64,000 nucleotides of DNA from Mytilus californianus (lineage: Eukaryota), in the NCBI RefSeq assembly GCF_021869535.1, contig NW_026262690.1, forward strand, positions 42,594,001-42,658,000, written 5' to 3'. The translations under genes and the position numbers were made by a program. The notes under the pieces are model-generated. The model did not search any database, was not told the origin of the DNA, and worked only from the letters and a program-made list of their open reading frames with translations. Shown piece after piece: positions 51,180 through 56,088 of this stretch (the first letter of the stretch is position 1; each line of letters opens with the position of its first letter).

Positions 51180-51520
51180 CTAATATGTGTCTATCTTATA
51201 ATGTCCATAGGCATAGCTTTCAATTGGGTTCTTCCAGTAACGTTTATCATCAAAACTACACAGTCCTTTTTTCACAACGGTATCCATGAAAAGTTCATGA
51301 TTTTTACTTCTAATGCACGTCATTGAATTGGTGGTCGTAGTTTCTTCATTCAAACATTTCTTATACATTTCATGTCGGAGAGTCTGTTTTATTTCAGTTT
51401 TTGAAATGCCTTTCGCCACTTTTTTTTCCTTTTCGCATGTGATACCTTCTGTAGAGGTCTGGTTATACAAAAGGCTGTACATTTTAGGTCTCAAGCCAAC
51501 GAATTCTTTTAAAGGAACAC
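51180..51520 (-). CDS. polB: pPolB exon 4 (C-terminal)
   Basis: atcttttcag|GT GTT CCT TTA. Reads GVPLKEFVGLRPKMYSL...KKVAKGI...FDDKRY...SYAYGHY*. Confidence 0.92.
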
Positions 51521-51569
51521 CTGAAAAGATTTTTTGAGGCACATGAGAAAGACAATATTTAATAATAAT

Positions 51570-51830
51570 TTAACAGAAAATTCAAAGAAAAAAGGAAAAT
51601 TTAAAAGAAAATTCAAAAGAAAAAGGAAAATTTAACAGAAAATTCACAAGAAAAAGGAAAATTTAACAGAAAATTCTAAAGAAAAAGGAAAATTTAAAAG
51701 AAAATTCTAAAGAAAAAGGAAAATTTTACAGAAAATTCAAAAGAAAAAGGAAAATTTTACAGAAAATTCAAAAGAAAAAGGAAAATTTTACAGAAAATTC
51801 ACAAGAAAAAGGAAAATTTGAAAGAAAATT
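51570..51830. repeat. ~8 tandem copies of a 31-bp unit inside pPolB intron 3
   Basis: Unit cagaaaattcaaaagaaaaaggaaaatttaa. The pattern shifts one base per 30 columns, giving period 31. No spacers. Confidence 0.9.
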
Positions 51831-51884
51831 TATGTTAAACTTTAGAGAGAGAGAAGAATAAAATGTTTGTTTGAAAGAACTCAC

Positions 51885-52046
51885 CACCAAGCTCATCTTT
51901 AAATTTCCCAACGACTTTCTTATATTTGCTGGAAAAGAGATGTTTCGTTTTGTTGAATGAGCCGTAGTTGGAGGTATCGAATAGGTCTTTGATAGGTTTC
52001 ATGTCTTCATATACATCATCAGTCAGAATCTCATAACACAACGAAT
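51885..52046 (-). CDS. polB: pPolB exon 3
   Basis: cattttag|AT TCG TTG TGT...CTT GGT G|gtgagt. Reads (D)SLCYEI...FDTSNY...VVGKFKDELG. Length 162 = 2+159+1. Confidence 0.92.
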
Positions 52047-52198
52047 CTAAAATGAATTCAGAAATGTTAGCACAATACCAAAGAGGAATCTCTTCCTTTA
52101 TTCTACTTATACAAAGGAGAAAACAATGAGAAATATTAGAAATTTAAAGAAACAATGGCTTTTATTTTAACAAACAAACAAACAAAAAAATATCATAC

Positions 52199-52494
52199 CT
52201 GTATCTGTAAACAGCAAGTTGATCTTGTCACCGTACTGAGGCTTCATCACCTTGTAATGGAATTCATACATCAGTCTCTTTGAAAGGTCTAAAATAGCTT
52301 GCCCGGCATAGATGGGTTTATTGAGAGTTAGGTTGATCTGTTGGTTGTGTACTCCAACGAGGTCTTCATTGAAAATTTGGCAGCATAGAAACGACGGCTG
52401 AGCTACTAACTTTTTTAGTTTTTCTTCCGAGGCTGAATTGATTAGTCTTAGATTCATCCTAGCACGCAAATTTTCCATACATTTACCAAAAACA
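52199..52494 (-). CDS. polB: pPolB exon 2
   Basis: ctttttcag|T GTT TTT GGT AAA...GAT ACA G|gtatga. Reads (S)VFGKCMENLR...KPIYAGQAILDLSK...LLFTDT. Length 296 = 1+294+1. Confidence 0.92.
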
Positions 52495-52649
52495 CTGAAA
52501 AAGTAGGAATACTTTTAGATAAGTACTAGAAGCTGACACAAAAAACCACAAAACATAATTAAATCAATGTGGGTAATGCGACAATGAGACAACAAGCAAA
52601 CTCGAGATCTTGACAACACTTTAAAATCTTACACATTTAAAAATAACAT

Positions 52650-52866
52650 AGATATAGGAAGATGTGGTGTGAGTGCCAATGAGACAACTCTCCATTCAAA
52701 TAACAATTTAAAAAAAAAGTAAACCATAATAGGCTAATGTACGGCCTTCAACACGGAGCCTTGGCTCACACCGAACAACAAGCTATAAAGAGCCCCAAAA
52801 GTGTAAAACCATTCAAACGAGAAAACCAACGGTCTAATCTATATAAAAAAAAAAAAAACGAGAAAC
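52650..52866 (+). repeat. Host family A repeat inside pPolB intron 1
   Basis: Collinear with 17551-17765 and reverse 35630-35845. Its end (cgagaaac) reaches into the intron 5' splice-site region. Confidence 0.85.
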
Positions 52867-52870
52867 ATAC

Positions 52871-55800
52871 CTATTACACATCAGTTTGAAAAAGTCCTTC
52901 TCAAAGTCGTTGTTTGCCTGTTTTCTCATGTTGGTGTTGAATTCTATGTAGGTTTTAAGCCATGCCTTTTGTTGAAATCCTAATACTCTATGTATTTTAG
53001 TTATTTTCATTCCAAGTTCTGTATAAAGTTGTAAATTTTGATAATGCACCACATAGTTTGTCTTTTTCTTCAGAGTTGGAATTAATTTTCGGGTTTTAAT
53101 CCTAGGTTTCACTTTTTCCACACCATTTGCATTCTTCACAGAATTTAACTTTCCCCATAAATCAGTACTGTATTTCGATAGATCTTTGTCTTCAATGAGT
53201 AGATGTTCGGGTGCCAGAGGATAATCGTTATGTTTGTTGTGGAGATGTTCAGGATATTCTATGTCTACTTCTAAAATGTAGCCTTCTTTTGCGTCTGACT
53301 CGACTTTCTGTAACTCAAAATGACTAATTTCATCTTCATTTAAAAAATGGAAAAAACCATAAGGCAATGGTTGAGACATTGCCCAACCGTACAAATTGTT
53401 AGCATCTAGATACATGATGTGTTTTTTCACATCTGATTCATTAAAGTCGTCAACATATTGATGATTAGCTCGACTGTATTTTTTGGTAACCATACTGACC
53501 CCACCTCGTGTTCCAAGCTCTATCATGTTGTACATGAGGGGATCAGTTATTAAATCCAGGCAGACACCGCTCATTTTCAATGCTGCTTGCCTTGCTAAAC
53601 CTGGACTCGTGAAAAAGTGACTAGCATCCAACTTGTAATATTCAAGAGTCATGTCACGGAATCGTTCGAAAACATCTGCTAAGAGTAGCGTATCTGTTAA
53701 TACATACAAATTGTGAAAATCCCCTAAGGTTTTCATATTGAACGTGTTCCAGACCTTTTGAGCGTGTTCATACTTTTCATCAGAAATAGCTTCTTTGGTT
53801 AAGGAATTATAAAAAGCTGCTTTTGAAGGGAGAGCTGTCTCTTCAAATCTTTCAGAACAATTCACATAATCATAACAGTATTCGTTTTTCTGTAGCAAAA
53901 GTTTAGCGTGTTCGTCATTGGGGAAAGCTTTTCGAAATTGTTTGAAATTTTTAAAACCGTCTGCCGCTAAATTAGCAATTAACGTCTCCAAAGAGCTACT
54001 TATGCACTGGTATGTGTCTAAAAACCTCAGTTGTCCAACAGAAAAGGACACATATTTCTCCATATTGTTTGGTATACATGTTAATTTTTTGTCCTTGAAT
54101 TTACCAGCTTCCGACAGCAAAAGGTGTGCATCAAAGTTCCGCAAATTATGAAAATAGACCGGAATGAAATTTGGATTTTTCAACATCAAGTTGCATCTCT
54201 GACAGGCTGCCCCTCTGTAATTGCTATACTTTGGTGATTCGTTATCTTCGTTTATACCTAAATGGTCGTGGTCACGAACTTTGATTATTTTGCCTGAAAA
54301 TGGTTGATTGCATACATAACAGTTTGTAGCATTTTGAAATTGCGTTTCGGTTTCCACACTCATAATTAACTCCTCATAAATGTTCCTCAATATATCATCT
54401 ATGTATTCTTCCTCTGTAAATATATTTTCAAAAAAGTGTTCGACTGCGTTCTCTCCTCTGTATACAACGGCTGGCTTGGAATATCTATCATTTGAACTGA
54501 CCACAACGTAGGAGTAACCACATGGAACAAATTTTGTTTTATGTGTTGTTGACGATTGATTTGGGTCTGGTTGACAAGTATCCATCTTTTTTGCAAAGCA
54601 TTCAAAGTCTGCATAGATGACAAAAGGAACACGCATTTGTTTATGAAAGTCTCTAAATTCTAAAATGGCTTCTCCTTCTTTTGGATAAGTCACTTTTTGA
54701 AAATCAAACTTATTACAATATAGTCTGTGTTCATTTAATAAGTCTTGTCTTATGAATCCGTGAAGACATCTTCTACAGTAAAACCGTTTGGTGTGAAATT
54801 TAGTCATTGATCCAAGGAAACGATCTAAATTTTTGATCCAACAGTAGTGAGTTTCCCCGTTCTGTGATAAATACAATAAATCGATCTCCCTATCTACATT
54901 TTCTAACTTTGTTAAATATAGTGGGAACACTTCTTCGTTTTCAAAGCCAAAAACATTGATTGAAATATTGTTTTGTTTCTCAAATTTCTCCATTTTTGTT
55001 AAAGACACAGGATATTCAATATCGTTCATGTTCAATTCATTTTCGTGTGCCGTATAATGTGACTTCCGATATGGATTATATTCCATCGGATGTAGGGCTG
55101 CCAGTACAGACCATAGGAAACACTTTTGGTCATCATTTCTAATGTTGATAATTCCACCAGTGGCCTTAATTTTGTATGGTAATTCCATATAATTTGAACC
55201 AGCTATGGGTGAGTATGGTAAAGTATGTACTTCGAGGCATATAACTTTATTCAATATCCAGTTAGATCCCTTGTTGATAAATTCTTCCATTACTCTGTTA
55301 ATCGTTTGGAAAGCTTCATTTAAATTATGATCATTACTCTCATTCTGAAGAGATATGTAACTTTTGCTGCGGAAATGTGGGTGTGCCTTTTCTTGTTGTC
55401 CATCATTAATATCTCGAACCATCTTCACTCGAGCATTTACATACCATTTGACATTTTTTTGTTTCTTTTGCTGAGATACTATTATTTCTTCAACATCAGT
55501 TTTCGTATTAGCCAAAAAACGTAATAAATCATATTTTTCATCACCAATAGGCATAAGGTCTACACGATTCACTGATTTGTTAATGGCGCTTTTCTTAAAA
55601 CGAAACCGTTTACGTTTTATCTGACTGACAACTGGCTCCTCCGTTTTAGGCATTCTACCTCCTGTTTGGTTTAACGGATGATGGTTGGCAACATGGGTGA
55701 ATAAAGAATCAACATCATCAAAGGAGACATCACAGTGTCTACATGTAAGTTGCTTAGATAATTGTTTATCTCGTTTGTTTATTGTGCGCTGTCCAGAACA

Positions 55801-56088
55801 CTTATTACCATGTTTGACTAAATTATGTTTTTGCGTAAACGATTTCCCACACGCTAAACACTGAATTCTGTTAAAATGTGAATTCATATGTCTGTTCAAA
55901 TTTCTGTTGTATTTGAAAGTTTTATCACAAATATCACAATTTAACTTTGGTCTTTTGACATCAACATTTTCAGCACATGATTTCTTACGTTTGAGTTTAT
56001 TCTCAACCTCTATGGCTGCCTTCACCAACATACCATCATCAGATTCGTTAAAATGTAAATCATTGGTATGAACACCGCGGTGAGCCAT
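52871..56088 (-). CDS. polB: pPolB exon 1: C2H2 zinc fingers, TP/vOTU-like region, exonuclease with EndoVII/HNH insert, motif A
   Basis: First ATG at 56088. Three CxxC...H zinc-finger-like repeats, DDQKCFLWSV...THY, VIYADFE (ExoI), CYVC...RDHDH...RGAACQRCN, HNLRNFD (ExoII), YVLTDTLLLADVFE (ExoIII), YLDANNLYGWAM (motif A). Ends KLMCN AG|gtatgt. Spliced CDS is 1338 aa. Confidence 0.95.

Follow-up and report, generated by a model that had tools for sequence, protein, structure and literature searches.

The closest described systems are the animal Polintons and adintoviruses, elements of ~20 kb with terminal inverted repeats (TIRs), a 6-bp target duplication, and genes for an integrase, a protein-primed DNA polymerase (pPolB), an ATPase, a protease, and capsid-like proteins. 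The available parts of two reports describe the core genes as intronless, as a preliminary description of the DNA studied here had also said, and define intactness by intronless open reading frames (ORFs) (PMC8097293; 10.1101/2022.07.12.499685); the second confines introns to cargo genes (10.1101/2022.07.12.499685). In its accessible text, a survey assumes that viral genes lack introns (PMC9356565), and the accessible portions of six further sources mention no spliceosomal intron in pPolB (10.1101/2023.08.22.554363, PMC12220804, PMC11296320, 10.1101/2024.03.25.586562, PMC11161782, and 10.64898/2026.07.28.741278). We found no description of such introns in Polinton pPolB in the literature; Repbase, subscription papers, or a GenBank feature table might hold one. 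Here we analyze a 64,000-nt stretch of the Mytilus californianus genome (the window; contig NW_026262690.1, positions 42,594,001 to 42,658,000), in which 43658-63464 is a complete Polinton/Maverick of 19.8 kb. It shares the above features with animal Polintons, the capsid-like genes probably among them, and differs from the published descriptions in that its replicase gene has three introns. We believe that this is a recent insertion whose three old GT-AG introns in pPolB are most likely removed routinely by the host spliceosome.

The pPolB gene lies on the minus strand, and its four exons were analyzed separately throughout. Exon 1 (52871..56088; 3218 nt, 1072 codons plus 2 nt), the homologs of which carry PF03175 or are named PolB, contains C2H2 zinc fingers, an endonuclease-VII-like stretch, the motif A region, and the first half of motif B. 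Intron 1 (52495..52870; 376 bp, phase 2, GTATGT...TTTCAG) lies inside motif B and is followed by exon 2 (52199..52494; 296 nt), which carries the remainder of motif B and extends to the FTDT of motif C. Intron 2 (52047..52198; 152 bp, phase 1, GTATGA...TTTTAG) splits the codon of the second Asp of motif C. Exon 3 (51885..52046; 162 nt), intron 3 (51521..51884; 364 bp, phase 1, GTGAGT...TTTCAG), and exon 4 (51180..51520; 341 nt through the stop) complete the gene, and ATTAAA/AATAAA occurs downstream of the stop at 51168 and 51113. Intron 3 contains a 31-nt tandem repeat and varies from ~360 to 750 bp across family copies. Each exon is stop-free in the expected frame, whereas all three introns have stops in every frame and no length divisible by three. 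The split codons read KLMCN|VFGK in motif B and FTDT|SL in motif C. The spliced exons add up to 4017 nt, or 1338 codons and a stop. The preliminary description had given these same introns, their interruption of motif B and of the catalytic Asp codon of motif C, and one frame of 1338 amino acids from the ATG at 56088, and all of this is borne out.

It had also called for an alignment free of indels at the joins. Among the 120 best matches, exactly one homolog residue lies between the exon ends in 106 at join 1, 100 at join 2, and 88 at join 3, which is what a single split codon leaves; one computed gene model uses a different donor at join 1, and the remaining homologs end before the joins. 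The three homology-defined gaps would all begin with GT and end with AG by chance with a probability of ~2e-6. By conservation, the windows around joins 1 and 2 rank in the top 3–5%, and that of join 3 is average. The gaps have the features of U2-type introns, namely a GT donor, a pyrimidine-rich tract, an AG acceptor, and restoration of the homologous frame, and no Rfam model of a group I or II self-splicing intron matched 43600-63500 at the gathering score. The protein is 49–56% identical to proteins that carry PF03175 or are named adintovirus PolB, and motifs B and C align; PF03175 itself gave no match to the pPolB exons of the window in Pfam, and sequence searches of the PDB with pPolB returned nothing relevant. 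Public gene models from M. edulis are 100% identical to exons 2–4, and public Mytilus models splice all three joins, although computed models are not proof of splicing. Ten of the 120 homologs are ORF calls that end at the motif-B donor of intron 1, and five end after the site-3 donor, so the earlier expectation that ORF-based surveys would take the gene for broken is supported. Searches with exons 2 and 4 found no ORF-called protein of the close family that spans a join, which is weak evidence either way; above 65% (exon 2) and 55% (exon 4) identity they returned computed gene models only, apart from one partial match that spans no join. The comparison supports the gaps as spliceosomal-type introns rather than lesions, in an unbroken gene of a recently mobile element.

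Introns with GT-AG ends occur at the same nucleotide sites in families that are 58–85% identical in exon 2. A further 20 loci were compared. The full set of three introns occurs in five, which are 68–78% identical in exon 2, and intron 3 by itself in seven. In one family, introns 2 and 3 are accompanied by an intron 8 nt downstream of site 1. Intron 1 is missing from two close relatives, and two loci are free of introns; the remainder are too degraded for full scoring. In L031 and L032 (84–85% identical in exon 2), intron 1 is exactly gone and intron 2 is kept, consistent with precise loss or recombination. In 40 more loci of the same genome, chosen partly for short frames, intron 3 was found in two, and sites 1 and 2 were without a gap in all. 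Intron 3 is also present in an oyster family, whose ORF call ends there and whose RefSeq model continues. Across six families, 31 intron pairs gave no extended alignment, with three at the edge of the shuffled range (their scores reach 34). Between families, synonymous sites have reached saturation (proportion of synonymous differences 0.77–0.94, 15 pairs). The nonsynonymous divergence of exons 2–4 (0.17–0.35) equals that of exon 1 (0.13–0.33) in the same number of pairs, one copy carrying a stop. Because the same nucleotides are shared by introns of unrelated sequence and exons 2–4 are under purifying selection, the introns are old and maintained, with position kept while sequence diverged.

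Two quick, midpoint-rooted trees were built from the exon-1 part alone. The first has 63 rows and leaves out L032, and its rows L031 and L036 possibly cross frameshifts. Both trees place the intron-bearing rows in one clade, which in the second tree (54 rows) comprises 23 rows with an SH-aLRT support of 98; a mapping of the introns on a phylogeny had been proposed. This clade also includes P0017, which lacks intron 3, and one gene model whose intron state is unknown. The introns are thus shown to be spread through one bivalve-associated polymerase clade of mussels and oysters.

Within the genome, the close family has been mobile recently. Among 150 scored matches, the exon 2 search gave 13 loci at 98–100% identity and two partial ones; inserts 1 and 2 are present in all 15 of these family loci and insert 3 in 14. 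Eight other whole or near-whole copies were fetched, five of which have matching target duplications, each distinct. Splice dinucleotides are intact at 47 of 48 sites in these eight, and all core frames are unbroken in two of them, as in the window element. There were at least six insertions with differing target duplications, and five young copies are 97–99.8% identical to the window. These copies show that intron-bearing elements kept transposing; the insertion in the window, with its identical TIRs, is recent. In exons 2–4, differences fixed between the older and younger subfamilies are 6 synonymous to 2 replacement, against 9 to 23 for private ones (Fisher p 0.036). As the fixed differences are mostly synonymous, the exons downstream of the introns were therefore needed during replication of the element.

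Intron 1 of the younger subfamily carries an abundant host interspersed repeat of ~220 bp (52648..52866), which begins 4 nt into the intron and had been missed in the preliminary description. Three older copies have no repeat and a shorter intron 1 at the same site, so the repeat is a later addition. The donor still reads GTATGT after the insertion; the repeat has been carried along by about ten later insertions, and its entry did not halt the spread of the younger subfamily. An intron here acts as a safe landing site, and the host repeat it took in can ride on a mobile virus-like element. Introner copies would be expected elsewhere in the genome. All 15 genome matches of intron 2 are family copies, as are 15 of the 16 matches of the repeat-free part of intron 1, the other being one further locus. 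To judge by these matches, introns 1 and 2 would not belong to an introner family, as their sequence seems confined to the element; an ancient introner origin may nevertheless lie behind them.

Among 84 metagenome and viral loci, 77, 78, and 74 are contiguous at joins 1, 2, and 3, and two, L100 and L107, have GT-AG introns. Gaps in L101 and L166 were considered as introns and rejected as not intron-like. L100, an unbroken gene 45% identical to ours, has a 245-bp GT-AG intron (L100:1965-2209) at the identical motif-B nucleotide and falls outside the intron-bearing clade, its membership being rejected by an approximately unbiased (AU) test (p-AU 1.3e-5). L107 and L042 have an intron 8 nt downstream of the motif-B site, and their union in one clade is likewise rejected (p-AU 5.7e-5). 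The AU tests used LG+G4 on a quick tree with hypotheses picked after viewing it, which makes them strong leads and not proof. These data point to independent gains, putatively at the same motif-B nucleotide and 8 nt away.

Taken together, we propose the following course of events. The integrated element would be transcribed in the nucleus, where the host spliceosome would remove the three introns as a routine step. Motifs B and C have an established function in polymerases. Because introns 1 and 2 cut these two motifs, an active polymerase would arise only from host-transcribed, spliced nuclear RNA. The purifying selection on exons 2–4 argues for the same dependence on host splicing, which lends support to the need for the spliceosome that the preliminary description had put forward. 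The introns would have been gained stepwise, first at site 3, the most widespread, then at site 2, and then at site 1. The gains would have taken place at guanine-flanked junctions between or within codons (G|G, CAG|A, AG|T), in elements resident as integrated nuclear DNA. They may have persisted because only exact loss is tolerated within conserved motifs, inexact loss being lethal. After fixation the introns would have drifted freely in length and sequence, even acquiring the host repeat. Motif B seems to be a preferred site, with apparently independent gains at the same nucleotide and close by. A switch function would be unnecessary to explain these data, and the further suggestion that splicing acts as a control of replication is unsupported.

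Spliced reads across the three junctions had been named as the direct check. Four RNA runs were aligned to 51835-62900, a stretch that excludes most of intron 3 and all of exon 4. In run X1, two contigs have GT-AG joints on the plus strand, antisense to the capsid-like and integrase genes, that link pieces with strong canonical sites at 57922-58024, 59963-60083, and 61034-61261. These two canonical antisense joints indicate that the host splices RNA from this element. A contig of X5 spans exon 3 and some of intron 2, and its placed part ends at 51882, with 331 further letters unplaced. At precisely this point the first letters of intron 3 and those of exon 4 stop agreeing, which hints that intron 3 is spliced in this RNA. 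The region of the host repeat has very high depth in the RNA runs. One of the four, a raw-read run, is uninformative: no read in its 1,554 million letters examined (6% of the total) fell on a pPolB exon.

Several observations weigh against routine splicing of old introns. No joint over intron 1 or 2 was seen in the four runs, in which coverage is very low; for intron 3 there is the hint of one contig, itself indirect since exon 4 lay outside the aligned stretch. Contigs that cross the boundaries of introns 1 and 2 unspliced do occur at a depth below 10 (X1 record 2, X3 records 9 and 10, X5 record 17); their strand is undefined, they may be DNA, nascent RNA, or antisense RNA, and one comes from a frameshifted copy. 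The intron-split structure is real and well supported by comparison, and the evidence from RNA is thin. All four intron sites lie in the last 20% of the pPolB frame (p ~0.002–0.008 if uniform), and three of the four fall in the top 3–5% of conserved windows; pure drift does not explain this 3′ clustering and placement. The order of gains rests on the quick, midpoint-rooted trees, and P0017 without intron 3 and L031/L032 without intron 1 indicate that losses or recombination occurred. A regulated switch or a benefit to expression or against silencing would be a possible explanation of the 3′ clustering and the recurrence.

The widest alternative, which we consider rather doubtful, is that animal Polintons repeatedly and independently gain selected introns in the catalytic C-terminus, at one motif-B nucleotide at least twice and 8 nt from it twice, where splicing gates replication or splits primer and catalytic products, and that this hidden branch has been scored as dead. 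A narrower one, which we regard as improbable, is that the introns were favored because long, A-rich transcripts gain from a splice close to their 3′ end, in the form of better export, stability, or escape from silencing. HUSH-type surveillance silences intron-free foreign RNA. In line with this reading, introns occur in a single gene of the same-strand core block, the last one, and all sit near its 3′ end. The other core genes (integrase, capsid-like, protease, and ATPase) lack introns both in the window and in four divergent elements, and independent gains recur in the same region. However, the genome also houses many Polinton families whose long open frames have no introns, and a single intron would be enough.

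We give slightly less credence still to a regulated switch, in which retention of intron 1 would yield a protein of 1084 amino acids with the N-terminal domains and without motifs B and C. This short form would supply the terminal-protein primer or keep the element quiet in the soma, and full splicing would license replication. Every site lies downstream of the N-terminal region where, according to the accessible part of one report, Polinton pPolBs bear the terminal protein and a vOTU domain (PMC11161782), though the presence of these domains in the window protein is an assumption. The recurrent gains in motif B fit such a switch, and so do the contigs in which introns 1 and 2 are retained, one of them apparently spliced at intron 3, if they are not DNA, nascent, or antisense RNA. 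Against it, families with intron 3 only, or with none, persist in the same genome, the read-through tails past intron 1 vary freely from 1 to 44 residues, and the intron sequences are not conserved. In a last reading the elements are dead, and the gaps are introner copies or insertions that inactivated them, resembling introns by chance. The host repeat at +4 of intron 1, the introners filling polinton-like elements of dinoflagellates (available text of 10.1101/2025.03.18.643946), and the want of a direct splice read might suggest this. It is very improbable and largely refuted, since the repeat came later than intron 1, intron 2 matches only the 15 family copies and repeat-free intron 1 those plus one locus, the downstream exons are under purifying selection, fresh insertions have identical TIRs, and the sites are common to saturated families.

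The left (43658..43993, plus strand) and right (63129..63464, minus strand) TIRs of the element have AGTAGT ends and are exactly complementary over 331 nt, and six identical bases flank the element at 43652..43657 and 63465-63470 as a 6-bp target-site duplication. The genes on the minus strand are, in order, a BIR gene, the integrase, two probable capsid ORFs, the protease, the ATPase, and finally the polymerase. The retroviral-like integrase with a chromodomain (60260..61366; Pfam rve 8e-11), the adenain-like protease (57524..58036; Pfam Peptidase_C5 3e-5), and the packaging ATPase (56754..57524; Pfam Pox_A32 4e-5) are each a single ORF. An ORF of 139 amino acids (59838..60257) and another of 440 (58033..59355) gave no Pfam match, and their order is conserved across four divergent elements. 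Polintons typically encode a minor capsid protein and a double jelly-roll major one, and by their size and place among the genes the two ORFs are probable counterparts of these, respectively. With TIRs, the 6-bp duplication, an rve integrase, the ATPase, the adenain-like protease, and a pPolB recognized by homology, the Polinton hallmarks are present, and the trait of intronless core genes is broken by pPolB only. The remaining core genes are free of introns in four divergent whole elements. A gap of 73 bp in a divergent capsid-like gene was rejected as an intron, being a small insertion with a direct repeat.

The BIR/IAP-like gene (62478-62811, minus strand) is split between two frames here, as it is in all six family copies that extend this far, whereas it occupies a single frame in two divergent families, which suggests an accessory gene disrupted family-wide. 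The accessory arm (44000-51000) apparently has multi-exon genes, with homologs in divergent families: a secreted or membrane protein that begins at 48690 on the minus strand, and a plus-strand gene from ~49320 with a strong donor near 49557 and an acceptor near 50799. At 50200-50630 there are short direct and inverted duplications (164 nt; 70-nt arms), possibly another small repeat insertion. Beyond the element, 10250-22300 is a tandem segmental duplication of ~6 kb with copies 91–98% identical.

The introns bind the replication of a lineage of animal Polintons to transcription in the nucleus and to splicing by the host. For this lineage, a cycle that depends on a giant virus and runs purely in the cytoplasm would therefore be less likely. 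Because ORF callers cut proteins at introns, surveys that score intactness by intron-free ORFs miss a whole active clade. The same clade is a compact system in which to study how introns are gained and lost and how gains recur in parallel at a single nucleotide.

The structure is less new than the preliminary description implied, because the GenBank third-party entry DAC81352.1 (Mytilus Mediterranean mussel adintovirus PolB) bridges joins 1 and 2 and public Mytilus models splice all three. This entry is from a sister family in the same clade as the window and is ~62% identical to the window protein. It is 95% identical to an ORF call that ends at intron 1, yet it is continuous over joins 1 and 2; it differs in continuing into intron 3 and in missing the true C-terminus. 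The main text of the accompanying paper has no "splic" and one unrelated "intron", and the accessible part of its supplement has neither (PMC8502044). What is new here is that an intron occupies the identical motif-B nucleotide in an unrelated lineage, and a position 8 nt downstream in two further ones. According to the available text on chloroviruses (PBCV-1, NY-2A), their DNA polymerase, a viral family-B gene, likewise has a spliceosomal intron at a common position (PMC7019647). There, however, the host of the gene is a giant algal virus and the intron is single, short, and conserved in sequence, whereas the window element is an integrating, protein-primed one with three unalignable introns and parallel gains. 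Dinoflagellate introners, as the accessible part of their report describes them, are also spliceosomal-type inserts inside maverick-polinton-like elements (10.1101/2025.03.18.643946). Those are mostly young, multi-copy, and post-integration, whereas the introns described here are old, restricted to the element, common to several families, and maintained under selection.

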